From assembly GCA_038244685.1 (NCBI GenBank), contig JBBRTD010000001.1, positions 166,392 through 230,391 on the forward strand: a stretch of 64,000 nucleotides of DNA, in the 5' to 3' direction. Below the pieces are notes generated by a model. The model saw only the letters and a list, made by a program, of their open reading frames with translations, did no database searches and was not told the DNA's origin. This document shows positions 4,926-57,500 of the stretch, piece after piece. The stretch is from Minisyncoccia bacterium. Lineage in GTDB: Bacteria > Patescibacteriota > Minisyncoccia > Phycocordibacterales > UBA9973. Both the position numbers and the translations under genes were made by a program. Positions within the stretch are counted from its first letter, which is position 1; each line of letters begins with the position of its first letter.

Positions 4926-4946
4926 ATTTGTATTATTAATTACTAA

Positions 4947-5270
4947 TTAAGCAATATATCTATTTCTAAAATTCAAAAATTCTGCTGCTAATAATTCAGG
5001 GAAGTTAGCAATATTCTCATTACAAAATTTTTGAGTAAGAGTTGCATCACCAGAATCAATAAGTTTTTCGAATTCACCTAATTTATCTTCAATAACTTGT
5101 GAAAGAATCATAGCTTTAATTCTATTTTCAAGTCTTTCAGTAAGATCTTTCTTAAGTCCTATCAAAGTGCTTTCTTCTAGCTTTTTATCCATCCCTGTTT
5201 CTTTTACAAGATTATCAATAAATTGATTCATCATCTGATCGGCACTTAGATTTTGTGTTTCTTTTGACAT
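4947..5270 (-). CDS. Small acidic helical hypothetical protein (107 aa), immediately upstream and co-oriented with the giant protein
   Basis: ORF with 22-nt spacing to downstream gene. No recognisable motifs. Confidence 0.5.
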   Translation of the reverse strand: MSKETQNLSADQMMNQFIDNLVKETGMDKKLEESTLIGLKKDLTERLENRIKAMILSQVIEDKLGEFEKLIDSGDATLTQKFCNENIANFPELLAAEFLNFRNRYIA

Positions 5271-6435: not shown

Positions 6436-6509
6436 CCGCCCTTAGCTCAGTTGGTTAGAGCACAGAGCTTATACCTCTGGGGTCCTAGGTTCGAATCCTA
6501 GAGGGCGGA
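6436..6509 (+). tRNA. tRNA with anticodon UAU (reads AUA; tRNA-Ile(UAU)-type), 73 nt plus discriminator, CCA not encoded
   Basis: Hand-folded cloverleaf. Acceptor CCGCCCU/AGGGCGG, D-arm GCUC-AGUUGGUUA-GAGC, anticodon stem CAGAG/CUCUG with loop CUUAUAC (U33, anticodon UAU, A37), variable loop GGGUC, T-arm CUAGG-UUCGAAU-CCUAG. Confidence 0.8.
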
Positions 6510-6556
6510 CAATACAAATAACCTTACCGTCGTAAGGTTATTTGTATTGTCCGCCC
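6503..6556. terminator. Long (24-bp stem) hairpin that incorporates the tRNA 3' acceptor strand; bidirectional terminator between tRNA (+) and ftsH (-)
   Basis: GGGCGGACAATACAAATAACCTTA / CCGTCG / TAAGGTTATTTGTATTGTCCGCCC is a perfect inverted repeat. Confidence 0.55.
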
Positions 6557-9178: not shown

Positions 9179-9570
9179 GGGGATGATCGGCTTCGACAAG
9201 AGGAATCATCTTATATATGCATGTAAAGTACTCAGGAATCTTTTAAAACTTCTTGGAAAAGACTAAGTGCAAACAAAGTCGCTTCAGTAAAATCACCTTA
9301 CTCTTTTGGGTTTGCTGGTTTTGCTCCCGCTTTCGCCTAAATTTAGGCCTGGTGGGTGTCCGCTCTTTTGACATCCGATATAAAGAGTGGGCATCATTTA
9401 TCGGGTTACGAAATTACAACCGCTTGATGTAATCTCCGACAATTAAAAGCTCGCTATTTATCTTTCTTGTATGTTCTCTAGGATAAACATCTAAACGAAA
9501 TGGACATACTAAACATGTAGACTTCTATAAGATTTCTTTTTGCACGCGGGTTCGATTCCCGCCATCTCCA
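9179..9570 (+). ncRNA. ssrA: tmRNA (ssrA), standard one-piece
   Basis: 5' GGGGAUGAUCGGCUUCGACA pairs with 3' ...CAUCUCC-A. 3' tRNA-like domain GCACGCGGGUUCGAUUCCCGCCAUCUCCA with T-loop GGUUCGAUUCC. Candidate tag reading frame ends ...GCU CCC GCU UUC GCC UAA AUU UAG (peptide ending ...FAPAFA, double stop). Confidence 0.85.
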
Positions 9571-9576
9571 CATATT

Positions 9577-29876: not shown

Positions 29877-32612
29877 TTAGCTTTTATACTTTTCCATTAT
29901 TTCGGCTTCTACCTCTTCACGAGCGCGACCATATTTTAAGTAAGATAACTGTTTAATTTTTTCTACAATCTCAGGATCATTTCCTTTGGGGGTTAAGCTC
30001 CAATGAGAGGTCATACTAAAAGGTTTTACTGGCGTTCCACTCACAAGCATGCTTACATATGAATTAAAATTGTCTAGTTTAGTAATATCTGAAGCAGTAA
30101 AGGCTGGTTTAAATTTCTGTTCTACAAAGTTTGCATCTTCTGTACTGATACGATATATAGCCATCGAGCCAACGTTTCCAAAAACAGCATTTTTTATCCC
30201 CTCTTCTAATTGCGATATGTATTGATGAGCAATAGTTAAAGACAATCTATATTTACGTGCCTCAGAAAGAATTGATGAAATAGAGTCTGTCGTTACATTT
30301 TGAAACTCGTCTATATATAAATAAAAATCATTCATTTTTTTCCCATACATATCTACCCTAGAGAGTGCAGCCATTTGAATTTTACCAACAATAAGTAGGC
30401 CTATAAGATTGGCATTCACTTCTCCAAGTCTACCTTTCGAAAGATTTACAAGAAGAATTTTTTTATTATCCATTATGTCTCGGAAATTAAAAACAGATTT
30501 TTCCTGAAGAACAACTGGACGCATAATATCGTTTGAGATAAAGTTATCAAATTTAGAGGTAATGTAAGGAACAAAGTTGGCAATAGATTGATCGCCAGTT
30601 GTCTGCTCTGCGCTTTTCCAGAATTGAGTAATTATCGGATTTTTACAATGACTTAACTTCATATCACGAAATGCTTTGTCAGACAAAACTCTCCCGATTT
30701 CTAAAAGAGTTGCTCCACTTTCAGGATGTTCCATAACAAGAAAGGCCGAGTTTTTAAAATACTGTTCAAACATCGGACCTCCTGAAGTTTTCATGTCAAA
30801 AAGTTTATTGAAGATACCCATCAATTCATTTACAACGAAAGTTTTTTGTTCAGGATAATTTGGATCATATTCGAGCATATTAAGTCCCATTGGGCGAGCT
30901 GTATAAGCTGGATCAAAATAAATAACATCATCAATGCGCTCTTTGGGGACGTAACTTAAAATATCCTGAATATCACTTCCGTGTGGATCGATAAAACAAC
31001 AACCTTCACCATTTTTAATATCCTGGGCAATCATATTTTTCAAAATAGTTGTTTTACCTGTTCCAGTCTGACCTATGACATACATGTGACGCATTCTATC
31101 CTCTCGAGACATGCGAATCTCTGTATCTTTTCCGCGATAGCTATTTATACCAAGCAATATACCCTCATTCCCCATTTCCATCGGAGCAGGAGCAATCCCT
31201 GCTTTAGCAAGTTTAAGCTGAGAAGAGACGACTCCATAAGGAAAGTGAAAAATAGTTGCGAGTTCTTTTAAATTAAGAGGCATCTTATATTCATCAGAAA
31301 ATGTTCGATAAGAAAAATCATGAATAAGGTTCATTAAATCTCCACCCTTTGGATGATTAAAATTAAATCCATTTCTATCTGATTCTGTAAACTGATTAAA
31401 TGATGATTCTATTTCTGAAAGTATTTGCTCTGATCTTATTCTTGATTCAGCTGAAGCAATGATACGAATGTTTGTTGCCATAATAGTACTCTTCAATTTT
31501 TCTCCAATATATTCAACTGCTTTATCATTAACTTTCTTGTCTTCTTTCTTTTTAGAAGCACCAAAAAATAATTCAGAAGCTAAACTCTTGAATTCTTTTG
31601 TAACCTGGCGAGTCACACTTGAAGCTGTTCGAACAGACATGCCATCTTTTACATCAGCTAAAATAATATGAAATTTTCTAATTATTTCTTCATCTTCCGG
31701 ACAAATTGTAAGCTGGATTGAAGCTCCTTCTCCTGTCTTTTTAAGCTTAGTCAGAACATTAAGAATTATATTTAAAGGGTCGTGATCAATTGCATCATAA
31801 AGTTTAATAGGATAAACCTCGTGGTGAGCAAGCGTTGCGTAAGAGGCACTAATAAAACCATTCTCGGAGAAAACATTATAGTCATCTGGGACTTCTGTAA
31901 CTTTAGCATTTAAATGTACTCCCAATAATTGCTTCTCAAAAAGCTCAGCTTTGTGAACGGGCACTGCAACATAAAAAATAAAACTATCTGTTCCTTCTGC
32001 AAGTGCAATTTCCAAAGTAAAATGATTCCGGTTAAAATTTTCTCTACCTTCCCCTACTGAATGCATACCTGCATAGAATTGCTCCATTGCAGAAAGTAAT
32101 TCTTTTAATCCTTTTTTATTAGCATCATTGTCAGTAGCATCAGGCAAGGCAATTTCAAAAAGCTTCATATTGAGTGATTTGAAAAGTGGCGTACCTTCTT
32201 TAAGTCCAGGAACTTTATGTGTTGTATATAAATATTGAACAAGGAAACGATGGAAGTCGTCATCTAAATGAGGATTATTCATTTTAGCAACAACAGAAAG
32301 AGCATTTGAAATTCCTTTATCTAATAGGACTCCCAATAATTCTTCCATTTTACTGTCATGTGTTTCTGGCTGTAATCTTAAAACAAAATTTTCAATGTCA
32401 CTTTTCTTCATAACGGCATTTTTATGCAAAACACTTTCTGGTTCATATTTACGATATTCAGAGATCACATTATGAGCAAGGTCTTCTTTGTTTACCTCCC
32501 TACCTTGTTCATTCAAAGCTTTTTCTCTCTCGGCAATATGAGCACGCAAAAAAGTTAACTCCTCTTCTGGAGTTTTAAATTTAGGTGCATTATTTAGATT
32601 AAATCCTTCCAT
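29877..32612 (-). CDS. FtsK/HerA-superfamily P-loop NTPase, TraD/VirD4 (type IV coupling protein)-like or HerA-like; 911 aa, no obvious N-terminal TM anchor
   Basis: Walker A IGQTGTGKTT, FIDPHGSD (DPxG motif of TraG/HerA families), Walker B FYLYIDEFQNV, TIAHQ. About 450-aa N-terminal region of unknown function. Confidence 0.55.
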   Translation of the reverse strand: MEGFNLNNAPKFKTPEEELTFLRAHIAEREKALNEQGREVNKEDLAHNVISEYRKYEPESVLHKNAVMKKSDIENFVLRLQPETHDSKMEELLGVLLDKGISNALSVVAKMNNPHLDDDFHRFLVQYLYTTHKVPGLKEGTPLFKSLNMKLFEIALPDATDNDANKKGLKELLSAMEQFYAGMHSVGEGRENFNRNHFTLEIALAEGTDSFIFYVAVPVHKAELFEKQLLGVHLNAKVTEVPDDYNVFSENGFISASYATLAHHEVYPIKLYDAIDHDPLNIILNVLTKLKKTGEGASIQLTICPEDEEIIRKFHIILADVKDGMSVRTASSVTRQVTKEFKSLASELFFGASKKKEDKKVNDKAVEYIGEKLKSTIMATNIRIIASAESRIRSEQILSEIESSFNQFTESDRNGFNFNHPKGGDLMNLIHDFSYRTFSDEYKMPLNLKELATIFHFPYGVVSSQLKLAKAGIAPAPMEMGNEGILLGINSYRGKDTEIRMSREDRMRHMYVIGQTGTGKTTILKNMIAQDIKNGEGCCFIDPHGSDIQDILSYVPKERIDDVIYFDPAYTARPMGLNMLEYDPNYPEQKTFVVNELMGIFNKLFDMKTSGGPMFEQYFKNSAFLVMEHPESGATLLEIGRVLSDKAFRDMKLSHCKNPIITQFWKSAEQTTGDQSIANFVPYITSKFDNFISNDIMRPVVLQEKSVFNFRDIMDNKKILLVNLSKGRLGEVNANLIGLLIVGKIQMAALSRVDMYGKKMNDFYLYIDEFQNVTTDSISSILSEARKYRLSLTIAHQYISQLEEGIKNAVFGNVGSMAIYRISTEDANFVEQKFKPAFTASDITKLDNFNSYVSMLVSGTPVKPFSMTSHWSLTPKGNDPEIVEKIKQLSYLKYGRAREEVEAEIMEKYKS

Positions 32613-32667
32613 AAGAATTATTATATCACACTACAATACTAAAACAGAAAATACGGGCGTCCATAAA

Positions 32668-33540: not shown

Positions 33541-34230
33541 TTAGTCTTTTATCGTTGTTCCCTTAAAAGGAATACCATTCAAATAATTTTCAAGACTCTC
33601 TAGGTTGTGACCTGACATAAAGGCAACTTCCATTCCTTCCCTCTCGGCTTTTTCCGAAGCTACTGGATCAAACGGAGTGCTTAAGCCTGGTCTCCACTCT
33701 GTAGAAATATAAGTTCTGTAATCTTTCCAAGTAACATTTTCGAATTTTTTAGCATTGGGATTTTCTTTTGGATCACTATCATAAACATAATCAATATTTG
33801 AAATATTAATTATCTTTTTAGCATTTAATTGTTCAGCAATAAGGACAGCACACATATCAGTAGAAAATCCTGGTTTATATCCAGCTCCAATAATAATACT
33901 ACTATCTACTTCTTTGACCATTTTAGGATCAATAATTATATCTCCATGAGCAAAACCACCAAAAGATAATCTTACAAGTTGTGCATTTAAACGAGTTGTA
34001 TATATTCCCATCCAGTCTAATTCATCATGAGTCGCACTTATAATTTTATCTAAAGCTGCATTGTATCTTCGGCAGGTTTTACCACCACCTACTACAATTA
34101 CAAACTTTTTATTTTTCCCTGCCCAATATAAAATTATATTTTTAAAAAGTACAATAAACTCAGGACTGGGAACGTCCGGAACGACGATAGCCCCACCTAA
34201 TGATATAATTATTGTTTCTTTTTTGGGCAT
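33541..34230 (-). CDS. Amino-acid-kinase-family protein, UMP kinase (PyrH, archaeal-type)-like. Start taken at MPKKETIII; ORF track extends to 34293.
   Basis: IIISLGGAIV, VVGGGKTCRRY, YDSDPKENPNAKKF resemble UMP kinase nucleotide-binding motifs. Confidence 0.55.
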   Translation of the reverse strand: MPKKETIIISLGGAIVVPDVPSPEFIVLFKNIILYWAGKNKKFVIVVGGGKTCRRYNAALDKIISATHDELDWMGIYTTRLNAQLVRLSFGGFAHGDIIIDPKMVKEVDSSIIIGAGYKPGFSTDMCAVLIAEQLNAKKIINISNIDYVYDSDPKENPNAKKFENVTWKDYRTYISTEWRPGLSTPFDPVASEKAEREGMEVAFMSGHNLESLENYLNGIPFKGTTIKD

Positions 34231-34231
34231 A

Positions 34232-34831
34232 TTATAGATATTTTTTAATATTATTGATAATATCTGTGTGAATTTCTTCGATTTTCCCTTCACCCTTTAT
34301 CTCAATATATTTATAGAAAGAATCTGATTTAATTTCCTCAATCATCGGTAATATATATTTATCATATTCATTTAGTCTACTTTCTATGGCTCCTTCATTG
34401 TCATCCCCCCTTCCGCGAGCAACCATACGACTTGTCACACTTTCTCTTGAAACATCAATATTAATTACTACAGCTTCTTCTCTTTTAACATAGTTTAGTA
34501 ATTCTTTAATTAACTTTAATTGATCGCTAGTTCGAGGGTATCCATCAAAAAGCAAAACTGATTCTTCGTCTAAAATATCGATTGTACTTCGAACAAATAA
34601 AGCATTAGTTAAAAAATCCGGCTGAAATTTACCCTGCTTCATACTCACATCACGAGCTATATCTTTTACATAACCTGGCTCTTTAAAAAAAGAACGAAAA
34701 ATATCTCCCATGACAATAGATTTAAAGGGAGTATTTAATTTTGATAGATATTGTTTTACAAGTTCAATCTGTGTCCCCTTACCAGAACCTGATCTTCCAA
34801 TAAATATAAATGTTTGTGGTTTATTTATCAT
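34232..34831 (-). CDS. adk: Adenylate kinase
   Basis: P-loop GRSGSGKGTQ, operon position after secY. Confidence 0.9.
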   Translation of the reverse strand: MINKPQTFIFIGRSGSGKGTQIELVKQYLSKLNTPFKSIVMGDIFRSFFKEPGYVKDIARDVSMKQGKFQPDFLTNALFVRSTIDILDEESVLLFDGYPRTSDQLKLIKELLNYVKREEAVVINIDVSRESVTSRMVARGRGDDNEGAIESRLNEYDKYILPMIEEIKSDSFYKYIEIKGEGKIEEIHTDIINNIKKYL

Positions 34832-36164: not shown

Positions 36165-36593
36165 TTATTTAATAGTTCCAAGAGCCTTTTCAATCTTCTC
36201 TTTGGCTGTCTTAGAAAGAATACAATTTTCAACTGAAATTTTTACAGTTATTTCACCATTTCCAAGAATTTTGACAACAGGTAGCTTACCGGCAACTCGG
36301 CGAATAAGGTTTTTCTCAAATAATGTAGCTGGACTTACAATTGAACCTGGAGTAAATACATTTAAAGCTCCTACGTTTATTGGTGCTGGCTTTGTATCAA
36401 AAGATGCAAAACGGTAACCACGAAGTTTTGGAATTTTCTTGATGATATCACGCATTTGTGGGCGGCGCTTATTACCAGCACGGGCTGTCTGTCCCTTGCC
36501 TCCACGTCCGGAAGTCTTACCACGTGTACCTCCACGGCCTACGAGTCTAGCTTTTTTATTTGGGTGTTCTCTTTTTAATGTATGTAATTCCAT
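36165..36593 (-). CDS. rplO: 50S ribosomal protein L15
   Basis: Gly/Arg-rich N-terminus RGGTRGKTSGRGGKGQ. Confidence 0.9.
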   Translation of the reverse strand: MELHTLKREHPNKKARLVGRGGTRGKTSGRGGKGQTARAGNKRRPQMRDIIKKIPKLRGYRFASFDTKPAPINVGALNVFTPGSIVSPATLFEKNLIRRVAGKLPVVKILGNGEITVKISVENCILSKTAKEKIEKALGTIK

Positions 36594-36602
36594 ATAATTT
36601 TA

Positions 36603-37274
36603 TTATTTAACTTCTGCTGATGATTCTTTATTTTCAACCTTAGCAAGAACTTCTGATTCTGCTATGAAGGCAGATACTTTTGGAAGTGAGGCAACGGCTT
36701 TTAATTGGTAAAGAGTCTTGTAAGCAACTCTTGCATTGTTTAATTTATTCTTACTTCCAGAATGAAGTTTTGCAGTAATATTCTTAAGTCCAGCTAATAT
36801 TAACATATCGCGAACAGTACTTCCTGCTACTAATCCTTTTCCACGGTTTGGCATCATTTCTAGTTTTGAACTTGAGAACTTAGATGAAACAGCATGAGTG
36901 ATAGACATTTCTTTTGTAGTCTTAATCTTAAACATGTTCTTCTTTGCTTGACGAAGTGCTTTCGCAATAGCCATAGCTGTATCTCCTCCTTTTCCAGTAC
37001 CAAGTCCAATTGAACCCTTTTTATCTCCAATAGCAAGTGCTACAGCAAATGTCATACGGCGTCCACCGGCAACGACACGAGTAACTCTTCTGATTGAAAC
37101 CATTTTCTGGTCAAATTCTGGTTTTGGTTTTTCAAAAAATGTTCTTGGCTTACGATCTCCCCCTTCACGCTTAGGTCCACGATTATTACTATTAGCCCCA
37201 TAACTTCTGTTGTTATTAAAAGGGGTACTGTTAGTATTGGTAGGTGTATTTTGTTTTGGTTTAGTTGTATCCAT
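36603..37274 (-). CDS. rpsE: 30S ribosomal protein S5 with about 60-aa N/T/P-rich N-terminal extension
   Basis: Conserved S5 dsRBD and C-domain (RVTRVVAGGRRMTF...GSGN). rplO follows directly, so no rpmD (L30). Confidence 0.9.
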   Translation of the reverse strand: MDTTKPKQNTPTNTNSTPFNNNRSYGANSNNRGPKREGGDRKPRTFFEKPKPEFDQKMVSIRRVTRVVAGGRRMTFAVALAIGDKKGSIGLGTGKGGDTAMAIAKALRQAKKNMFKIKTTKEMSITHAVSSKFSSSKLEMMPNRGKGLVAGSTVRDMLILAGLKNITAKLHSGSKNKLNNARVAYKTLYQLKAVASLPKVSAFIAESEVLAKVENKESSAEVK

Positions 37275-39069: not shown

Positions 39070-39624
39070 TTACTTAATTGGGTAAAGCACTTCACCAAGA
39101 TTGAATGAATTTGAATACAAAAAACGAATAATAAATATAATCATCCAAATAATAAGACCAAGAATCCACAATAGTAGATTAATCCAACCAAGAAACAAAC
39201 TAATTCCATAACCAAAGACAAGAGATTCTCTTATTGATTTTTTCTCATCACCAGGACAACAAAGATAGTATTCTTCCCCGTTAAGAGCCGCTTGATTTAA
39301 TCGATTTTTATCAATATTATCATTGTCTTCGCCACTAAATGATACTGGTATTATGGGCATTATTGCGTTCGTTATTTTCTTATTAACATTTTTTGAATCT
39401 GTTAAGACTGAATCAACAAACCAAAATAATGATTGCCCAGGCCAAATCAAACAAATTGGCAGATAAATGCGCTTTGGAGTCAAATTAAAATCCGGATAAT
39501 CAATTGCCACGCGTTTTCCTATTAAAACTTTTCTCCAATAAAATGTTCGCACCGATACAAACAGATACCCAACTGGTATCCATAGAATAATAAATCCCAA
39601 AATCAACATAGTTATTGTTTCCAT
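39070..39624 (-). CDS. Hypothetical polytopic membrane protein inserted between rplE and rpsN
   Basis: Four predicted TM segments, no known motif. Confidence 0.5.
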   Translation of the reverse strand: METITMLILGFIILWIPVGYLFVSVRTFYWRKVLIGKRVAIDYPDFNLTPKRIYLPICLIWPGQSLFWFVDSVLTDSKNVNKKITNAIMPIIPVSFSGEDNDNIDKNRLNQAALNGEEYYLCCPGDEKKSIRESLVFGYGISLFLGWINLLLWILGLIIWMIIFIIRFLYSNSFNLGEVLYPIK

Positions 39625-40905: not shown

Positions 40906-41148
40906 TTAAATTACTTTAAAATGCTTATCTTTAGACATTGGCTTTGTCTCTTCGATTTCGACTTGATCTCCTACTTTCTTTTCATTGTTCTCATCATGAG
41001 CTTTGTAGTTTTTTGTTTTCTTGATACGCTTTCCGTATTTCTTGTGTTCAACGTAGCGAGTAACTTCAACAACGACAGTTTTATCCATCTTGTCTGAAAC
41101 GACAACCCCTTTTAGAACTTTATTTGTTTTTTTGATTTGTGTTTCCAT
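40906..41148 (-). CDS. rpsQ: 30S ribosomal protein S17
   Basis: [24 protein letters not shown]-fold signature. Located directly after rplP (no rpmC between). Confidence 0.85.
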
Positions 41149-41161
41149 GTTGTTGTTTTAA

Positions 41162-41578
41162 TTATCTTGCTACTATACGAGTTGATACTGGTAGTTTTGT
41201 TCCAGCCTTGCGAAGAGCTTCTTTAGCAACTGCAGGTGTAACTCCATCTACTTCAAATAATACTCTTCCTGGGCGAACATCCAAACAGTAACCTTGTGGG
41301 TCTCCTTTTCCTTTTCCCATTCCTACTTCTGCAGGTTTAGCTGTAAAAGGTCTGTCAGGAAAAATTCTTGTCCACATACGTCCTGTCTTACCAATTGTTC
41401 TTGATGTTACCTTACGAGCTGATTCTATCTGATTAGCACGAACACGTCCACCTGAAATAGCTTTGAGTCCGAATGATCCAAAAGCAACAGTAATACCACG
41501 AGTGTCCGGTGTGACTTTCGTCATATCAGTTCTACTTGTCTGCCATTTTCTATATTTTACTTTTTTTGGTGTTAACAT
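41162..41578 (-). CDS. rplP: 50S ribosomal protein L16
   Basis: MLTPKKVKYRKWQ start, conserved core. Confidence 0.9.
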   Translation of the reverse strand: MLTPKKVKYRKWQTSRTDMTKVTPDTRGITVAFGSFGLKAISGGRVRANQIESARKVTSRTIGKTGRMWTRIFPDRPFTAKPAEVGMGKGKGDPQGYCLDVRPGRVLFEVDGVTPAVAKEALRKAGTKLPVSTRIVAR

Positions 41579-43273: not shown

Positions 43274-44014
43274 ATGGCAGATTCAAGAGTAAATGAAATC
43301 AGCGAAGCGATAGCTTTGGCTGGATTGAGAATTGGGGCTATTAAAATAAGGCCAGCTAACCCATTTCTATGGGCATCGGGGACTTACAATCCCATATATA
43401 ATGACAATAGAATGTTCTTATATCATCCCTAATTACGCAGGATGATTATAGAAGGTTTTATTGAAATATTGGCTGGTGTTAAAAGCAGTCTTTATTACGG
43501 ACGGAAACAAACAATGGTTGCTGGCACTTCAACAGCTGGAATCCCCCATGGATATGGATTCGCAGATGCGCTTAAAGTTCCATTCGTTTACGTGAGAGAT
43601 AAGCCGAAAGATCACGGGATGAAAAACCAGATTGAGGGCATTGATGCCGAAAAAGACCTAACCGATGAAGTATTAATTCTAATTGAGGACTTGATTTCAA
43701 CAGGCGGAAGTAGTGTAGCAGCTGTTGATGCCATAAGAAAGGCTAAGGGGAAATGCAAGCTTTGCATCTCAATTTTTAACTATGGATTGCCAAATCCTCC
43801 AAAAATGTTTGCAGGGGAAATACCTTACAGCAAAAATGGAGAGAAGTTACTCGAACCATGTGCCTTAGAATCATTACTTTATTATCCCAAATTACTTGAA
43901 GTTGGAGTAAATAACGGATTTATTAAAAAAGAAGAGGAAGCCATCTTGCTTGGGTGGATGGACGACCAACCAAACTGGGGAGAGAAGAACGGATTCCCTC
44001 CGGTTTTAAAATAA
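43274..44014 (+). pseudogene. pyrE: Orotate phosphoribosyltransferase (pyrE) interrupted by an in-frame TAA at 43430-43432
   Basis: The N-terminal ORF (43274-43429, ...IRPANPFLWASGTYNPIYNDNRMFLYHP*) and the downstream ORF (43442-44014, ...TSTAGIPHG...VLILIEDLISTGGS PRTase motif) are in the same frame. Together they match the full Bacillus-type PyrE architecture, with the stop falling where a Glu is expected (PEVR -> P*LR). Confidence 0.6.
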
Positions 44015-44086
44015 AATGCATTAATATAAATAGAGCATGAAGAAATTTTCTTCATGCTCTATTTTTGTGATGTCTAAATTAAATAT

Positions 44087-44476
44087 TTATATTAAAGGAA
44101 TTATCTTCGGTAAAAAAATTATAAGTCCAATAAGACCAGAGACAATAACAGAAAGTGCCACAGCTCCAGCTGCCACATCTTTTGTATCGCGAGCATATGG
44201 GTGATAATTCGGACTTGTCAGGTCAATATCAATTTCAATAGCAGTATTAAAAGCTTCAGCTATTATCACTAAACCAATAGCGAAAACTATAATTGCCCAT
44301 TCAATAGAGGAAATTCCTAATTCAAAACCTAGATAAATAGCCAAAACTGCAAAAAAAAGATGGACCCAAAAGTTATGTGTTGATCTTATAAAAACACCAA
44401 GCCCCCTCAAAGCATGAGTCGTACTTTTAATGCGAGCCACCAGAGAAAACCTTTTTTTTTCAGTAAGTTTTTCCAT
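44087..44476 (-). CDS. dgkA: Diacylglycerol/undecaprenol kinase (DgkA family)
   Basis: Three TM helices with conserved NTAIE and AKDxxAGAV motifs. Confidence 0.75.
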   Translation of the reverse strand: MEKLTEKKRFSLVARIKSTTHALRGLGVFIRSTHNFWVHLFFAVLAIYLGFELGISSIEWAIIVFAIGLVIIAEAFNTAIEIDIDLTSPNYHPYARDTKDVAAGAVALSVIVSGLIGLIIFLPKIIPLI

Positions 44477-44490
44477 GATATTAAAAAATA

Positions 44491-44940
44491 TTATTCAATA
44501 ACAACGTACTTTTTTTGAATATAATATATACCGTAAGTGCAAATCGCTATCAAGGCCAACATAACAACATAAAACTGCAAAGTTGTATGATGATTATAAA
44601 AATAAACACTTATCTGTAGCAATAACTGACATGATAAAATTATACTAACAACATAATATGGAACTAATGCAATAGCATACTGCTTTTTATTTTCAGAAAG
44701 AGATACATTGATAGTTAAAGCTAAAACAAGGAAAGCAATAATTACAACGGCATGCATTATGATGACATTAATATTACCAAAGTAATCAAGAGGAGGGGCA
44801 ATTAACAAACGGCCTGTATCATATAATATACGCTCAGCTAAGGCCAAAAGGGCAAGACCCAAAAGAGTTATTATAAAACTTCCTGAACCAGTAAACTTTG
44901 TTTTAAAAACATTATTATTTTCTTCAAGTATTAATGACAT
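44491..44940 (-). CDS. Hypothetical polytopic membrane protein
   Basis: 4 predicted TM helices. No known motif. Confidence 0.45.
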   Translation of the reverse strand: MSLILEENNNVFKTKFTGSGSFIITLLGLALLALAERILYDTGRLLIAPPLDYFGNINVIIMHAVVIIAFLVLALTINVSLSENKKQYAIALVPYYVVSIILSCQLLLQISVYFYNHHTTLQFYVVMLALIAICTYGIYYIQKKYVVIE

Positions 44941-44945
44941 ATAAT

Positions 44946-45578
44946 TTAATTTTTAATATATTTTTGAATAAAAATAACTATACCTGTTAAGACGGCAATA
45001 ACAAGTATAAGCACGACGTAAACACCATAGGTTGCATTTGTATTTAAAATATAAGCACTCGTATCCCAAAGTAATCTAACTAAAAGCCAGGCTGATGTAA
45101 TAAAATATGGTTGAGAAATTATTAAATATCTTTTATTATCTTCGGAAAATGATCCATGTAGAATAAAAGCAACAACAAGAAATGGCAAAATAATCATTGC
45201 ATCAAAAATTAATTTGGCATTTGCATTAACTGTAGAGATGGCACTATCATCAATTACTTTATTAACCAAGATAAGCAGTGCTCCAAATAAGATAATTGCG
45301 AGTCCAATACTAAAAGGAGAGTTATATTCTATAACAGCTTTTTCTAAAATACTTTTTTCTTGTGAAACAGCAATCACCGGTTGTCCAACCAAGACAGGAA
45401 CAGGTGCCATGGGGGCATCTTTTTGTAAAATATCTTCTATTCTTTTTATTTCTAAGTAAGCTTCATTAATATCCACCGGCTGCCATCCATTTTTATTTAA
45501 AACTTCTCGAATGGTAACCTCTGGAAAACCTTGTAATTGAACTTTTTTAATATACTCAACTAGTTGTTGATTAGCCAT
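44946..45578 (-). CDS. Hypothetical membrane protein with soluble N-terminal domain, inserted between rplB and rpsS
   Basis: About 60-aa soluble N-terminus then 4 TM helices. Paralogous to 44491-44940 in its TM region (shared ...Y..V....I......L). No known motif. Confidence 0.45.
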   Translation of the reverse strand: MANQQLVEYIKKVQLQGFPEVTIREVLNKNGWQPVDINEAYLEIKRIEDILQKDAPMAPVPVLVGQPVIAVSQEKSILEKAVIEYNSPFSIGLAIILFGALLILVNKVIDDSAISTVNANAKLIFDAMIILPFLVVAFILHGSFSEDNKRYLIISQPYFITSAWLLVRLLWDTSAYILNTNATYGVYVVLILVIAVLTGIVIFIQKYIKN

Positions 45579-49970: not shown

Positions 49971-52900
49971 TTATATTTCTTTTATTACAGGCTTAAGTTT
50001 GCCCACCGTCACCGTAACACTCTTTGAATCATTTCCTCCTGGTCCATTACAGGTCAAAGTATAAATGGTGGTCTTTAGTGGTTTAAAGGTTTTATTATTA
50101 TTACCAATAGGAGTTACACCAACAATGCTGACCGATGGACTAGGAACAGAAACCATGGAACAAGTTGTGGCTCCGGTTGAAGTCCAAGCTACGTTAACGG
50201 CTTCGCCAAATTCAATTTTGTTAGTATTAACTGAGAATGACGATATAGATGCTGGTACTGGTGGATTTGTAACCGTTACAGTAAATAGTGATGACCAAGC
50301 AGAATTTGCTCCTTTAATATCTTGAGTTAGAGCCTTAAGTGAATATACTCCGGGTGTTGGCCATGAATTTGCTGGAACCATTGATGTACCAGAAGCAACA
50401 AAACCAGTCCAAACATCAGCAACTCCATCGTTATTCCAATCAACACCATAGCGAACTTGGTCGAGGTCTGGATCAGTTCCTGTGACTATGAAGTTTTGAA
50501 GTACATCTTTGTAGAAAGTTGCATTTCCAGAAATAGTAGGAGCTAATGGTGCATTATTATCTGAAATACACGTTGCTCCGCCCCAATGGGTTCCGGCTGT
50601 ACAAGAAGCAGTTGCTGTAGCTGTAGAAAGCAAAGTTCCATTATTATATAGGAAGAAATTTCTAGTACCATTTGAAACAGCATAAGAAGTTCCAGCACTT
50701 GAATTGGCATTAGCTACAACAATACTTGTAGGAGTTGTTACTTGAGAAGTTCCTATTGGATATGTTGTACTCCAAATTAAATTCGTATTACATGAACTTG
50801 CCCCGAGTGCTATAGAACAGTTCGTTGCAGTTATTGGTCCACTTGCAGGAGGATTACAAGTAAAATCTGGTAAGGTTTTAATATTACTCCAGGCTCCATT
50901 ACTTGCTCTAGTATGAACATAAAGACCGCTGTATGTCTGACCGGGAGTAATCGCTACACTTGTTGTTGTACCACTTGCAACATCCACATAGAAAGGAGCA
51001 GTTGGTCTTACGTAGCCACCAGTATAAGGAGCTGGAACAGCCCAGTTAAGAGTCACAAGATTTCCAGCAGCATTACATGAACTTGTAAATGAAGTTGGTG
51101 GTGGTGGAATAGTAACTGTTACAGCATCAGAGGCTGACTGACCAGTTGCATTTGTACATGCGAGTGTATATGTTTGAGAAAGCGCACTTGCAGCACCGGC
51201 TTGTGATCCTCCTGATACAGAGACAGCAGAACCATTGATTGTACAACTTGTAGCGTTAGCAACTGCAGCCCAAGAAAGAGTAACAGGAGAACCAACATAA
51301 GTTTCAACTGAACCATCGGCATTATTTGATCCCCAGGCTGTGACTTTTAAGTCAGGAGTTGGAACAGCGGCATTGTTAACGTTAAAAGAAACTGATGTCC
51401 AACTATTCGCTGATGGAACCCAGTCAGAATTGTAACAATATGCTGACATGGTATGAGATCCTACAGAAGTTAAAGCTGGAGTATTATATGTTCCTGAATT
51501 ATAAACACTTGAATAATCCCACCCCCCACCAGAAGTCCAATTCCAATCTAATAATAAGTGACTGTAATATCCATTACTACAAGAATATGAAATAGTTGCT
51601 GGTGATCCGTAGGGAACATTTGGTGTAACAGACAGAGAAGTTATATTTGAAGCACAAGCTGGAACATTGTATGTCTGAGTGCTTGGTCCTGAACAAGCAG
51701 CTCCACCATAAGCAGGTGTTGGGCTATTACATGAGCGAGTTTGAGTTTTCGTCTGAGCGCTATAGGCACAAGTATTATCTTGGGCGCTCCATCCAGACCA
51801 TCCTCCATTTATAGGACAAGGAGCATTTGTATATGCTTGAGTGCTTGAACCAGAACAAGCAGCTCCACCACCTGAAGGTGCTGGACTATCACAAGAACGA
51901 GTTTGAGTTCCGGAATATCCACAGGCAGGATTTTGTGCACTCCAACCTGACCAACCTCCGTTTATAATAGGTGGACTAACAGTGAAAGTTCCTATTCTAC
52001 TCCAACTATTAGCAGAAGGAACCCAGTCAGAATTGTAACAATATGCCATTATATAATGAGTACCAGGAGTTGTAAGAGACCCAGTTGTAGAAGGAGATCG
52101 TGAGCCATAGTATCCACTATCATTTACTGGAGACCACACATCATCCATTATAAGATGACTATAATATCCATTTGTACAAGCATAATAAATATTTGCACTT
52201 CCTCCATATGGAATTACATTCGGAGAAACATAAAGAGATGTAATATTCGAGGCACATGCTGGAACTGTATATGTTTGAGTGCTTGGTCCTGAACAACCAG
52301 CTCCACCATAAGCAGGTGTTGGGCTATTACATGAACGAGTTTGAGTTTTCGTCTGAGCGCTATAGGCACAAGTATTATCTTGGGCACTCCATCCAGACCA
52401 ACCTCCATCAACAGGAGCATTAATAACACTATAATCACATGCAACCCATGGACTACTTACTCCACCTGCATTCATACATGAAACTTTTGCTTGGTGAGAT
52501 CCAACAGAGGCTCCGATTGCTCCTCTGGTTAAAGAAAGTGTCCCACTAGTATTATAATTTGACCAATAAGTATATTCATCAACTTTAAGTGAACACCAAC
52601 TTGCATTCGAAGAACCTACGGTAATATTGACAATATTACCAGAAGAATCTACTCCAGGATTTGGTGAAACAGAACATGAGGAAACGGGGGGTGGTGTAAT
52701 ATAAAAAGGAAGATCCCAATAATTATCACCATATAAACTTATATTTAAACTTACATTGTGATTACCAGGTGTTGCAACATTAAACGAAGTTGCTCCTGAA
52801 GGATAATAAGAAACATCTGTATAGCCGATAACCCATTGATATGTTGGATTTGTGTCAGTATTAGCTAATACATACATCGTTCCACCATAACTGGTATAGT

Positions 52901-53096
52901 CTACTGAAGTGGAAACTGTGACCGTATTTCCTGAAACATTTACGGCTGCAGTAAAGTACGTGTAATCTTCACCATTAGGATGAACGAGAGGCAGAAAAAA
53001 ACTATCTGCATCAACCTTATTAATTGGAATTAATGACAGTCCAAACAGAAAAACAAATATTATGAATAAATTATTAATTACTTTTTTCATTTTCAT
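49971..53096 (-). CDS. Giant secreted surface protein (1041 aa) with three thrombospondin type-1-like repeats, Ig-like repeat modules and a conserved C-terminal region shared with the paralog at 54560-57826
   Basis: Signal peptide MKMKKVINNLFIIFVFLFGLSLIP. TSR-like modules GGWSGWSAQ..C...TQTRSC.SP.P..GGA.CSG.STQ....PAC occur 3 times. Repeated beta-sandwich-like modules (ITSL.V.PNV...YSHL..D..W). C-terminal DPDLDQVRYGVDWNNDGVADVW Ca-binding-like loop. Confidence 0.8.
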   Translation of the reverse strand: MKMKKVINNLFIIFVFLFGLSLIPINKVDADSFFLPLVHPNGEDYTYFTAAVNVSGNTVTVSTSVDYTSYGGTMYVLANTDTNPTYQWVIGYTDVSYYPSGATSFNVATPGNHNVSLNISLYGDNYWDLPFYITPPPVSSCSVSPNPGVDSSGNIVNITVGSSNASWCSLKVDEYTYWSNYNTSGTLSLTRGAIGASVGSHQAKVSCMNAGGVSSPWVACDYSVINAPVDGGWSGWSAQDNTCAYSAQTKTQTRSCNSPTPAYGGAGCSGPSTQTYTVPACASNITSLYVSPNVIPYGGSANIYYACTNGYYSHLIMDDVWSPVNDSGYYGSRSPSTTGSLTTPGTHYIMAYCYNSDWVPSANSWSRIGTFTVSPPIINGGWSGWSAQNPACGYSGTQTRSCDSPAPSGGGAACSGSSTQAYTNAPCPINGGWSGWSAQDNTCAYSAQTKTQTRSCNSPTPAYGGAACSGPSTQTYNVPACASNITSLSVTPNVPYGSPATISYSCSNGYYSHLLLDWNWTSGGGWDYSSVYNSGTYNTPALTSVGSHTMSAYCYNSDWVPSANSWTSVSFNVNNAAVPTPDLKVTAWGSNNADGSVETYVGSPVTLSWAAVANATSCTINGSAVSVSGGSQAGAASALSQTYTLACTNATGQSASDAVTVTIPPPPTSFTSSCNAAGNLVTLNWAVPAPYTGGYVRPTAPFYVDVASGTTTSVAITPGQTYSGLYVHTRASNGAWSNIKTLPDFTCNPPASGPITATNCSIALGASSCNTNLIWSTTYPIGTSQVTTPTSIVVANANSSAGTSYAVSNGTRNFFLYNNGTLLSTATATASCTAGTHWGGATCISDNNAPLAPTISGNATFYKDVLQNFIVTGTDPDLDQVRYGVDWNNDGVADVWTGFVASGTSMVPANSWPTPGVYSLKALTQDIKGANSAWSSLFTVTVTNPPVPASISSFSVNTNKIEFGEAVNVAWTSTGATTCSMVSVPSPSVSIVGVTPIGNNNKTFKPLKTTIYTLTCNGPGGNDSKSVTVTVGKLKPVIKEI

Positions 53097-54408
53097 TCTT
53101 TTTTAGATTTCTAAAATATACAGCAACTCCTGCGACGACAAGAATTCCAATTGCCAAAATTATTAGGCTCTTATTTGCATTAGATTTTTTTTCTTCTGCC
53201 GAAAGAGGAGAAATGGGTAGTAAATTTATTCCAAAATTTTTTTGATCTAAGATATTTCCTTTATCATCTAATAAAGTGATGGAGGTACTGGGATTAAGAC
53301 ATTCTGTTTTTACAACAGCAGATAAATCTGTGATGGGATTTTTTATATTATTAATTAGAGGAATATTTATTGGATTAATGCATTCTTGCCCTTTATCATT
53401 TAACATTGTAGCTTTAATATTTAAATTTAAGGGTGTATTTTCTATTTTTGATTTATTACTACTTGAATTATAAAGCAAAGATAAGATAGCTGTGTCTCCT
53501 TTTTGATAATTATCTTTATTTAAAGTTAGATTTACAATTGAAGCACGAGTACCATTTAAAACATATGAGACATCAATCTTATTTGAAGAAACATCACCTT
53601 CAACCAGACTAACCTTCATATTATAAACCTGAGGGGTATTACCAATCGGAAGATTAATCGAAAATATTTTCTTTTCTTTTGATTTAAAAATTATTATTTC
53701 ATTGTTAATAATATTTTGTGGAACTATTGCCCCGTAAGATGAACCATTAAAAGTTTCAATTAAGGGTAAAACCGATAGATTTTTATCTATTTGATTAGTT
53801 GCTTCACAAAGGAGCTTTAGTGTTTCCCCTTTATTAATAGTAACTTTTTGTGAAATATTGTGATGAGGACTATCTTTTTCTTCTAATACCTGTGTGAAAC
53901 AAGTTGGTTCTGAAATAAGCAAACCCGCTTCTGAGGCCTTCAGGGTAACCTTACCTAATGAAACCTTAGCAAAAGGAAATCCATTTTCATTTTTAGCATT
54001 TATAAATAAATTATATTCACCCGAAAGTATTTTAGGGTAAGTGTAACTAATTTCTTTATTTAAAGTTTTATTTTCAAGAAGAACTAGAGATTCTTCGTAA
54101 ATTTTTTCATCAATAAGGTATGGAGTTTTTGAATCAGTGTCATACAGCTCAACTCCATATTTAATTCCAGTTTGAATTCCTGTACGATTTGATAAGATAA
54201 AAGAAATATTTATTATATTATCTTTTTGGGAAACTATTTTAGCATCTATTATATTTACGGTTGCTAAAACTACAGCTTTATTTATCGTATTATTAATAGC
54301 GGGTGGAACATTTGGCAGTTTTTGTGTTTCGTCTGCAAGGATAGGGGTTGCTAAAATAAAAGAAAGAAAAATAAACAAACTCACCGTTGGAATTTTTAAT
54401 AAATACAT
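53074..54408 (-). CDS. Signal-peptide protein with C-terminal TM anchor (444 aa), translationally coupled to the downstream giant gene
   Basis: N-terminal signal, beta-rich body, C-terminal LIILAIGILVVAGVAVYF then basic tail. 23-nt overlap with the start of 49971-53096. Confidence 0.6.
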   Translation of the reverse strand: MYLLKIPTVSLFIFLSFILATPILADETQKLPNVPPAINNTINKAVVLATVNIIDAKIVSQKDNIINISFILSNRTGIQTGIKYGVELYDTDSKTPYLIDEKIYEESLVLLENKTLNKEISYTYPKILSGEYNLFINAKNENGFPFAKVSLGKVTLKASEAGLLISEPTCFTQVLEEKDSPHHNISQKVTINKGETLKLLCEATNQIDKNLSVLPLIETFNGSSYGAIVPQNIINNEIIIFKSKEKKIFSINLPIGNTPQVYNMKVSLVEGDVSSNKIDVSYVLNGTRASIVNLTLNKDNYQKGDTAILSLLYNSSSNKSKIENTPLNLNIKATMLNDKGQECINPINIPLINNIKNPITDLSAVVKTECLNPSTSITLLDDKGNILDQKNFGINLLPISPLSAEEKKSNANKSLIILAIGILVVAGVAVYFRNLKKNENEKSN

Positions 54409-54508
54409 TTTATAAATTCTATTTTAAATAATAAATAATTGCCATAAGTATAACATTAGATATAGATATCAATGTCTAGTTTATTTGTTTAAATGTTTTG
54501 TAATATAG

Positions 54509-54543
54509 AAACACCCTAGGAACCTTTGTTCCTAGGGTGTTTA
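54509..54543. terminator. Terminator AACACCCTAGGAAC-CTTTG-TTCCTAGGGTGTT
   Basis: 14-bp stem 3' of the giant paralog. Confidence 0.55.
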
Positions 54544-54559
54544 AAACTATTTTATTTTA

Positions 54560-57500
54560 TTAAATTTCTTTAATTGTCGGTTTAATTTTCCCCACCGTCA
54601 CAGTAACACTCTTTGAATCATTTCCTCCTGGTCCATTACAGGTCAAAGTATAAATGGTGGTCTTTAATGGTTTAAAAGTTTTATTATTATTACCAATAGG
54701 AGTTACGCCAACAATACTGACGGATGGACTAGGAACAGAAACCATAGAACAGGTTGTGGCTCCGGTTGAAGTCCAAGCTAGGTTAACGGCTTCGCCGAAT
54801 TCAATTTTATTTTTATCTATAGTAAAGGATGTAATTGAGGCTGGTACTGGTGGATTTGTAACAACAACCGTGAACAATGATGACCAAGCAGAATTGGCTC
54901 CTTTAATATCTTGAGTTAAAGCCTTTATGTTGTAAGTACCAATAGTCGGCCACGAATTTGTTGGAACCATTGATGTGCCAGAAGCAACAAAGCCAGTCCA
55001 AACATCTGCAACTCCATCGTTATTCCAATCAACACCATAGCGAACTTGGTCGAGGTCTGGATCAGTTCCTGTGACTATGAAGTTTTGAAGTACATCTTTG
55101 TAGAAAGTTGCATTTCCAGAAATAGTTGGTGCTAATGGTGCATTATTATCTGAGATACATGTTGCTCCACTCCAATGAGTTCCGGCTGTACAAGAAGCAG
55201 TCGCTGTAGCTGTAGAAAGCAAAGTCCCATTATTATATAAGAAGAAATTTCTAGCACCATTTGATATAGCATAAGAAGTTCCAGCACTTGAGTTAGCGTT
55301 AGCTACAACAATACTTGTGGGGGTTGTTACTTGAGAAGTTCCTATTGGATATGAAGTACTCCAAATTAAATTCGTATTACATGAACTCCCGTTTAGAGGA
55401 ATTGTACAATTTGTAGCTGTAAGTGGTCCTGAAGCAGGGGGATTACATGTAATGTCTGCTATTGGTAAGGTATTACTCCAGGCTCCATTTGAACTTCTGG
55501 TGTGTAAATAAACTCCACTATAAGTTTGACCGGGAGTAACAGTAACATTAGTACTAAAACCACTTACAATGTCTTGATGAAAAGGTAATGTACCCCAGGG
55601 CGTACTTCTTAAATAGGCACCTGTATATCCAGGCTGAAGAGTCCAATTAAGTGTAGCTAAATTCCCAGCGGCATTACATGATCTTGTAAATGAAGTTGGT
55701 GGTGGTGGAACAGTAACGGTTACAGCATCAGAAGCAGATTGACCGGTTGCATTTGTACATGAAAGTGTATGAGATTTTGTTATTAAACTTGCCGTTCTTG
55801 TTTGAGACCCTCCTGAAACAGCAACAGCTGATCCATCGAGAGTACAACTTGTAGCGTTAGGAACTGCTGCCCAAGAAAGAGTATAAATATCACCTATATA
55901 AGTTTCTAATGGTCCATTAGAATTTGAACCTGACCACGCAGTAACTCTTAAATCAGGAACTGGGGCAGCGGCATTACTAACACTGAATGATACAGAATAC
56001 CAACTATTTGCAGATGGCACCATATCTGTATTGTAACAATATGCTGACATTGTATGAGATCCTACAGAAGTTAAAGCTGGAGTATTATATGTTCCTGAAT
56101 TGTAAACACCTGAATAATCCCATCCCCCACCTGAAGTCCAATTCCAATCTAATAATAAGTGACTGTAATAACCACTACTGCAAGAATATGAGATTGTTGC
56201 AGGTGTTCCATATGGGACAACATTATTTGTTATTGATAATGAGGTTATATTTGAACGTAAAGCAAAGTTAGCTGTACAGGTTTTTGATGAATCCATTGTT
56301 ACCTGTCCACTTGCATTACAACTTCCAGTCCATCCTGAAAATGTTGAATTGGCACTTGGAGAGGCAGTTGCTGTTACAAAAGTTCCTGGAGCATAACTTC
56401 CACTACCCCCCACAGAGCCAGAACCGGTCCCTGCTGTATTTACGGTAAGATTATAATTTACACAGTTAATAGCAACATTGGCTTGAATACTCCATGCTCC
56501 ATTTGAAGGATTTCTTGTGTGAACCCAGGCACTATAACCAGTATTTGGGGAAATTGAGAAGCCATCTGAAGTTCCAACAGAACCATCATTATAAAGAACA
56601 GTCGCTCCGTCTGAATTTCTAGAAGCTCTTGTATAAAAAGTATTATAACCAGCAGGTGCAGCCCAATTTATGGTTGCATACGTCGCACTAGCATTACAAG
56701 AATAACTTAGACTTGTAGGCATCGGTGGAGTAGTGATAGTAACTGAATCAGAAGCTGACTGACCTGTTGCATTTGTACATGAAAGAGTATGAGATTCCGA
56801 ACGAGCATTTGCAGTCCCAGCTTGTGAACCACCTGAAACAGAAACAGCGGAACCATCTAGAGTACAACTTGTAGCATTTGGTACGGCGTTCCAGTATAGA
56901 GTAAATGGAGAGCCTGTATAAGTTTCTATTGAACCATCGGCATGATCATAACCCCAAGCTGTGACTTTTAAGTCAGGAGTTGGTGTTGGAGCATTACTAA
57001 CAGTAAAAGATCCTATTCTAGTCCAACTATTAGCTGAAGGTACCCAATCTGAGTTATAACAATATGCCATGGCATAGTGAGATCCAGGAACTGTAAGTGC
57101 CCCTGTCGTCGTTGGAGATCTTGAACCATAATAGTTTGAATCTTGCCAAGCCCAAGTATCATCTAAAATAATATGACTATAATATCCATTCGTACAAGCA
57201 TAATATATATTAGCAGAACCTCCATACGGGACAACATTCGGTGAAACATACAAAGAAGTTATATTTGAAGCACAAGCTGGAACATTATATGTCTGAGTGC
57301 TTGGTCCTGAACAATCTGCTCCGCCATAAGCTGGTGTTGGATTATTACATGAACGAGTTTGAGTTTTAGTTTGAGCACTATATGCACAAGTATAATCTTG
57401 AGCACTCCAACCAGACCAACCTCCATTTACATTTACACCAAAATTTACGGTATACCAACCGGTCCAAACCCAATCATTGTTATAACAAGTTACAGAAGCA

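Follow-up and report, generated by a model that had tools for sequence, protein, structure and literature searches.

A soluble ATPase of the VirB4/VirD4 branch of the FtsK/HerA superfamily in a ribosomal-protein locus of a Minisyncoccia bacterium

The 64,000-nt stretch of DNA analysed here (the window), positions 166,392 to 230,391 of contig JBBRTD010000001.1 from a Minisyncoccia bacterium of the Patescibacteriota, carries a ribosomal-protein locus in which map is followed, at the place normally taken by infA-rpmJ-rpsM-rpsK-rpsD-rpoA-rplQ, by a gene for a 911-aa P-loop ATPase. This arrangement raises the question of what kind of ATPase lies in a core locus, and with which machinery it works. 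An initial annotation, made from the sequence alone, had called the protein a TraD/VirD4/HerA-superfamily ATPase with an unknown N-terminal region, and had suggested that it might be a conjugation relic or a defence ATPase. We conclude that it is soluble and belongs to the VirB4/VirD4 (type IV secretion) branch of the FtsK/HerA superfamily, and that its family is very large and found here almost only in Patescibacteria.

The open reading frame (ORF) is real: it runs from an ATG through to a stop codon on the minus strand (29877..32612), and since homologues align from residue 1 to the end, this ATG is supported as the start. All the motifs quoted in the initial annotation are in the sequence, with FIDPHG at residue 540, YLYIDEFQN at residue 764 and TIAHQ at residue 793. 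Beyond the Walker motifs (Table 1), residues E784, R786 and K787 of the SEARKY motif that follows Walker B are invariant, as is Q797 of the AHQ motif; R786 is a candidate arginine finger, and the NTPase domain is, judged by its invariant catalytic residues, catalytically intact. The lack of a transmembrane (TM) anchor also stood up to scrutiny. The highest Kyte-Doolittle mean over 19 residues is 1.54 and falls within the ATPase core, and no TM helix was found in residues 1-480.

The Pfam models TrwB_AAD_bind, DUF87, T4SS-DNA_transf and TraG-D_C all score just over their gathering cut-offs, in the C-terminal half only, which bears out the superfamily assignment, and sequence profiles rank TrwB and DotL ahead of HerA. 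More specific models fall short: FtsK_SpoIIIE scores 18.5 against a cut-off of 24, the NCBIfam TraD equivalogs TIGR03743 and TIGR03754 score 50.3 bits against 366 and 41 against 647, and TIGR00929 (VirB4_CagE) scores 19.4 bits against 643. There is no Pfam VirB4-family match on the ATPase, and a profile of the family did not retrieve VirB4 among PDB entries. A homologue search returned 2,407 matches, the best 120 of which are all ~910 aa long, 80-91% identical and from Candidatus Nomurabacteria or Paceibacterota. An exhaustive search of representatives gave 20,423 clusters (at 50% identity) at E<=1e-3 and 5,162 at E<=1e-30, and a scan of one genome per GTDB species gave at least 600 matches. 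The best 80 of these GTDB matches, on which our neighbour analyses (ORF calling and clustering) are based, are mostly labelled Patescibacteria or candidate phyla radiation (CPR), among them Nomura-, Taylor-, Zambryski-, Kaiser-, Adler-, Niyogi-, Vogel-, Azam-, Moran-, Falkow- and Komeilibacteria; we regard the few labels of Gammaproteobacteria, Bdellovibrionales, Bacillota or plain 'bacterium' as unreliable automatic labels of metagenome-assembled genomes. The family is already catalogued, as DUF8128 in Pfam, as 'type IV secretion system DNA-binding domain-containing protein' at NCBI and as t4cp1 in PMC12102498, so the ATPase gene itself is no discovery. A literature search for DUF8128 found nothing.

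The N-terminal half is where the protein departs from a plain coupling protein. In public precomputed Pfam hits it carries PF26449, which is DUF8128; to call it unknown was thus correct in that no function is assigned to it, and incorrect in that it is not unannotated. We predicted its structure with AlphaFold2, using template-free models built from 51-sequence alignments; their predicted local distance difference test (pLDDT) score, which averages 81.1 over residues 1-480 and 81.9 over the full length, makes them reasonably reliable. The structure prediction that the initial annotation had proposed was thus carried out, and yielded a fold like that of the VirB4 N-terminal domain plus a helical bundle. 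On these models the DUF8128 region has the fold of the VirB4 N-terminal domain.

The region ahead of DUF8128 has a separate history. Across 47 diverse representatives (30-62% identity), most members are ~800 aa long and cover residues ~145-911 of the window protein; the first ~140 residues are present only in the nearer clade. In 18 of the 80 loci a ~140-aa gene lies directly upstream of the ~800-aa forms on the same strand, and in five further loci the same upstream slot holds a ~160-aa gene that is seemingly unrelated. A hidden Markov model (HMM) of the 18 stand-alone small proteins matches residues 13-130 of the window protein at E=8e-13 (blastp, 3e-8); it matches the N-termini of ~900-aa forms and none of the ~800-aa forms. 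These residues are modelled as the helical bundle, with pLDDT ~85. Neither the module nor the small protein has a Pfam match, and the stand-alone form has no TM helix. Since residues 13-130 are homologous to a separate upstream gene, the window ATPase is a fusion with a small partner that the sister clade encodes separately. A neighbour-joining tree on the shared region divides fused and unfused forms into two clean clades, with a lone apparent exception that is an artefact of ORF calling. One 9-kb contig (L087, 446-7671) encodes two DUF8128 ATPases, one of 828 aa and the other of 940 aa, with a 191-aa gene and a sigma-70 region 4/HARE-HTH gene between them; hence at least some genomes have two DUF8128 genes of different length.

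Does the gene behave as an intruder in this locus? The genes run, on one strand, in the order rplO, secY, adk, an amino-acid-kinase gene (pyrH-like), map (Peptidase_M24, 6e-46), the ATPase gene, ndk (1.7e-39), an HD-domain gene and a beta-CASP RNase J-like gene, with map upstream and ndk downstream as the initial annotation had it. Its statement that the alpha-operon genes are missing after map was likewise upheld: tblastn with IF-1, L36, S13 and S11 found no match across the 64-kb window, nor within 10 kb of the ATPase gene in loci L002 and L004-L083, which places these genes elsewhere in the genomes of the lineage. The order secY-adk-(kinase)-map-ATPase-ndk-RNase J, with occasional insertions, recurs in ~25 loci of the fused clade, down to ~46% protein identity; the beta-CASP gene lies two genes from the ATPase gene in this one clade only. 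Across the same loci, identity of the ATPase rises and falls with that of SecY, Map, IF-3 and L20. In L005 the ATPase is 85% identical to that of the window, against 93% for SecY, 88% for Map, 92% for IF-3 and 88% for L20; the values in L013 are 53%, against 62%, 46%, 58% and 55%. By this conserved order and these identities, the ATPase gene is inherited vertically and has the behaviour of a core gene.

With which machine would such a motor work? DotO/VirB4-family ATPases normally lack TM helices, and membrane receptors recruit them by way of their N-terminal domain (PMC11474061), which also mediates dimerisation (PMC11474061; PMC12857230). The absence of a membrane anchor, which the initial annotation had rightly seen but had thought unusual for a coupling protein, can be explained by the VirB4-like N-terminal domain, because in the VirB4 family this domain binds receptors. 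By analogy with its structural relatives, the ATPase may form a hexameric ring, perhaps as a hexamer of dimers. Its contact with the membrane would be made by receptor proteins, to which the VirB4-like domain and the fused adaptor bind, rather than by helices of its own, and it would use ATP to feed or energise the transport of a macromolecule, be it protein, DNA or RNA, through an envelope machine. The most likely such machine would be a chromosomal apparatus resembling a type IV secretion system (T4SS), which is encoded elsewhere in the genomes of close relatives. For KKP60121.1 (P0037), 85% identical to the window protein, Table S3 of PMC12102498 gives 'T4CP, t4cp1, 88% coverage' at gene 74, and VirB4 at gene 545 of the same genome, ~470 genes away. 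For GCA_000991405.1, which contains the syntenic locus L004 (87% identical), the same table gives VirB3, VirB4 and VirB2 at genes 683-688 and a t4cp1 match ~90 genes from them, at gene 596; we presume the latter to be the orthologue of the ATPase.

We rank coupling to this T4SS-like apparatus first, as a statement about the family as well as the window protein, and judge the chances that it is correct to be about even. Several points weigh against it. Ring assembly, docking and the role in transport are argued from homologues, and the predicted template-modelling score of the full-length model is only 0.52, so that it is uncertain how the domains are oriented to one another. The window shows no link of the gene to T4SS genes; among the neighbours that recur within 10 kb across the 80 loci, no gene is recognisable as one for a T4SS component or relaxase, and neighbour clustering found no VirB3, VirB6 or VirB8 gene adjoining the ATPase gene. 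Quinonero-Coronel et al. (PMC12102498) counted 5,713 homologues of VirD4-type type IV coupling proteins (T4CPs) in 2,918 of 3,035 Patescibacteria genomes; only 148 of the 5,713 lie near virB4, and the homologues occur in more genomes than VirB4 does (2,918 against 2,417). In S. epibionticum the t4cp homologue is reported to be non-essential though the T4SS is essential, and the authors raise exaptation of T4CP homologues as a possibility (PMC12102498).

The same excess of T4CP homologues over VirB4 (PMC12102498) would fit an envelope motor that is independent of the T4SS, in which the ATPase and the small adaptor join a DUF5663 protein and a large, fast-evolving protein of the membrane or surface to form a translocation or assembly module of their own. 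The role of such a module might be to export the large protein or install it, or else to take up nucleic acid for nucleotide salvage, and the ATPase of the window clade does sit among adk, pyrH-like, ndk, HD-domain and RNase J-like genes; adk and map, however, are ordinary spc-operon genes, and linkage to ndk and the RNase J-like gene is confined to one clade. All 11 DUF5663-like genes (~100 aa) in the 80 loci lie 2-3 genes from the ATPase gene, outside the map context. Nine of them come directly after a gene for a protein of 580-1,045 aa, most of these with a central hydrophobic segment, and the other two after one for a ~230-aa protein; on a 1.5-Mb contig the cassette reads 1,420 aa, DUF5663, 144 aa, ATPase. 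The window too has such a pair (1290-5270, minus strand), formed by a DUF5663 gene (4947-5270; Pfam, 2.3e-6) and then a gene for a 1,211-aa protein (1290-4925) that has one central hydrophobic segment and no Pfam domain. The order in this pair is nevertheless the reverse of that next to the ATPases, where the large protein comes first. The 1,211-aa protein evolves fast, with only 29 homologues, the nearest 61% identical. The pairing of DUF5663 followed by the large protein is kept in the divergent relatives L089 and L090; divergent homologues of the 1,211-aa protein have the DUF5663 neighbour, but no DUF8128 neighbour. The large proteins next to the ATPases cannot be linked by sequence to each other or to the 1,211-aa protein: blastp, phmmer and iterated HMM searches found no homology between the latter and the former. 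We treat the neighbourhood of DUF5663 and large proteins as a lead, not a result, and rank the T4SS-independent motor second, as a rather unlikely reading. A bolder proposal, which we consider decidedly improbable, is that the DUF8128 ATPases are a third, unrecognised branch beside VirB4 and VirD4, ancestral-like in joining a VirB4-type docking domain to a VirD4-like motor, and now a T4SS-independent housekeeping machine of Patescibacteria that works with the small adaptor, DUF5663 and large fast-evolving envelope proteins; a possible role would be to pull host-derived nucleic acid or other macromolecules into a cell unable to make its own nucleotides.

A soluble protein with housekeeping-like conservation that exceeds the gathering cut-off for DUF87, the HerA central domain, could also be a motor of the FtsK/HerA type that works in the cytoplasm as a DNA translocase or in repair, and that serves chromosome segregation, recombination or end resection rather than transport across the envelope; in some loci genes for RuvABC, UvrA or the tau subunit of DNA polymerase III adjoin the ATPase gene. 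We rank this reading third and think it unlikely, given that TrwB and DotL come before HerA in the profiles and that no NurA or other nuclease partner is conserved nearby in the 80 loci. As a HerA plus nuclease system the gene was rejected for the lack of such a partner and for an N-terminal fold that is wrong for HerA. As a substitute for FtsK it was rejected because the Pfam FtsK score is below the cut-off and because related genomes have separate t4cp2 (TcpA family) matches (Table S3 of PMC12102498), which we take to be FtsK-like. An FtsK gene has been mentioned in the literature for the Saccharibacteria strain TM7x. Ranked last, and in our view very improbable, is the suggestion of the initial annotation in its wider form, by which the protein would be an ATPase (HerA-, DptH- or MADS-like) that defends against phages or plasmids, or else the remnant of an integrated conjugative element. 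PADLOC does report mad8 at 9e-13, on the ATPase core only, along with weak matches to HerA models, and a plasmid of Bradyrhizobium sp. 131 (p131_1; L084, 7179-9305) encodes a 708-aa orphan 'T4SS DNA-binding domain' protein that is 31% identical to the ATPase domain (E 4e-58) and lies among CHAT-domain and TPR genes, a context like that of conflict systems. This homologue and one from a Haladaptatus plasmid share only part of the protein, however, in unrelated contexts, and no plasmid or phage record covers >=80% of it. The locus itself also speaks against the suggestion. The genomic position is fixed, being the same in ~25 loci, and divergence across species matches that of SecY, Map and IF-3; base composition of the gene equals that of its flanks; no effector, methylase, integrase or relaxase gene adjoins it, and neighbour clustering found no conserved nuclease, SIR2, DUF4297 or relaxase neighbour; and the family is very widespread in Patescibacteria, unlike patchy defence genes. 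Relatives that keep the position have their T4SS genes elsewhere (the L004 genome and that of KKP60121.1), which is essentially what the initial annotation had named as grounds for giving the suggestion up.

Signals around the gene are consistent with independent expression. We found no Shine-Dalgarno sequence ahead of the ATG on reading the intergenic sequence; the box that stands there instead (Table 1) fits TGnTATAAT, and a TATAAT box lies 6-8 nt before the ATG in nine of the 11 relatives that were checked and have a located start codon. From this conservation, a promoter of the gene's own that gives a leaderless mRNA is predicted. The hairpin beyond the stop codon has a folding energy of -20.5 kcal/mol (z = -6.5 against 200 shuffles); it was detected by RNA folding, whereas a simple terminator scan gave no match there. 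The ATPase gene thus appears, from its flanking signals, to be its own transcription unit.

Table 1. The ATPase gene, its domains and motifs, and its flanking signals, in window coordinates
Feature	Position	Strand	Basis
TGATATAAT, extended -10 type box, ends 7 nt before the ATG	32620..32628	minus	intergenic sequence
Complete coding sequence, 911 aa: fused putative adaptor module, DUF8128 (VirB4 N-terminal-domain-like) and T4CP/VirB4-type P-loop ATPase	29877..32612	minus	
Helical module, residues 13-130, homologous to a stand-alone ~140-aa protein	32223..32576	minus	HMM, blastp, model
DUF8128 domain, residues ~145-470, predicted alpha/beta fold of the VirB4 N-terminal domain	31203..32180	minus	
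RecA-like NTPase domain, residues ~480-911, with a helical insertion (~589-715) between Walker A and Walker B	29877..31175	minus	
Walker A, GQTGTGKT, residues 514-521; G514, G517 and K520 invariant	31050..31073	minus	
Walker B, YLYIDE, residues 764-769; D768 and E769 invariant	30306..30323	minus	
Intrinsic-terminator-like hairpin and U-run directly past the stop codon	29831..29875	minus	RNA folding

Several further features of the window deserve mention. The AA_kinase (pyrH/UMP-kinase-like) gene between adk and map (33541-34293, minus strand) is also found in L002, L004, L005, L007, L008, L014 and L020. The ribosomal operon is interrupted between rplB and rpsS (43442-45578) by three ORFs for membrane proteins (210, 149 and 129 aa) and, on the opposite strand, a phosphoribosyltransferase-like ORF, and a 184-aa membrane ORF lies between rplE and rpsN (39070-39624). 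There is no space for rpmC (L29) in the 13-nt gap between rplP and rpsQ (window 40906-41578), and L29 may be encoded elsewhere; nor is there space for rpmD (L30) between rpsE and rplO (window 36165-37274). Loss of L30 is known in CPR. Outside the operon, a tRNA-Ile gene with anticodon TAT (UAU) at 6436-6510 on the plus strand represents an unusual bacterial way of reading AUA, and a transfer-messenger RNA lies at 9179-9571. At 9910-12604 on the minus strand, ~17 kb from the ATPase gene, a gene for a cytosine-C5 DNA methyltransferase-like protein (355 aa) overlaps one for a 545-aa protein that is by eye of the GHKL/HATPase type; the two may form a pair for restriction or defence. At 49971-57826 and 60456-61928, on the minus strand, lie genes for two giant secreted paralogues (1,041 and 1,088 aa) and for a 490-aa protein. 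These proteins, probably surface adhesins, are rich in GGWSGWS...C (thrombospondin-type-1-like) repeats and have in common long C-terminal stretches of near-identical sequence.

Patescibacteria are host-dependent, and for epibiotic growth they require their T4SS. The T4SS-like ATPases that are most widespread in the phylum, the 'orphan T4CP homologues', nevertheless lack an assigned role. A VirB4-type receptor-binding domain, a fused partner and evolution like that of the ribosomal operon turn an opaque DUF into a testable model, that of a soluble motor recruited by specific partners. Candidates for these partners are, on the one hand, the small adaptor together with DUF5663 and the large envelope proteins and, on the other, T4SS proteins of the VirB3/VirB8 type. 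The family is also relevant to the divergence of VirB4 from VirD4. The literature that we found does not describe a VirB4-type fold for DUF8128, the fusion or splitting-off of the small partner, the division into two clades, the core-like rate of evolution, the conserved promoter of leaderless type or the recurrent neighbourhood of DUF5663 and large proteins, all of which seem to be new.

Compared with named systems, the protein would work like a motor of the VirB4/VirD4 family, yet it falls outside the canonical T4CPs, outside VirB4 by sequence, and outside HerA and FtsK. FtsK/SpoIIIE proteins combine a match to the motor-domain model with a TM anchor and a gamma domain, a combination that the window ATPase does not have; it likewise lacks the paired N-terminal and central domains by which HerA is recognised, its N-terminal fold being a different one, and a gene for a nuclease, Sir2 or DUF4297 partner is absent as a conserved neighbour in the 80 loci. 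Its match to PADLOC defence systems is to the ATPase core, with no partner genes, and the HD-domain gene (the one neighbour scanned) has no PADLOC match. With VirB4/TrwK/DotO it shares the VirB4-type N-terminal domain, but at the sequence level it falls outside that family (TIGR00929; PDB profile search), and its relatives hold a separate, bona fide VirB4. With the T4CPs VirD4, TrwB, TraD and DotL it shares a TrwB-type nucleotide-binding domain with Walker A and Walker B. T4CPs have an N-terminal TM anchor, where the window ATPase instead has ~470 residues that make up the fused adaptor module and the VirB4-like domain; its gene, by contrast, is not linked to T4SS or relaxase genes, VirB4 lying 90-470 genes away in relatives, and it scores below the curated full-length equivalog models for TraD (NCBIfam). 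For TraJ, the T4CP of plasmid pIP501, a small protein, TraI, has been proposed as the membrane anchor (PMC12857230). Unlike the window ATPase, TraJ is plasmid-borne and encoded within a tra operon, and TraI has two TM helices, whereas the small partner of the DUF8128 ATPases has none and is fused in the window protein; the proposed dependence of TraJ on a separate small protein nonetheless parallels the small gene upstream of the ~800-aa members of the family.

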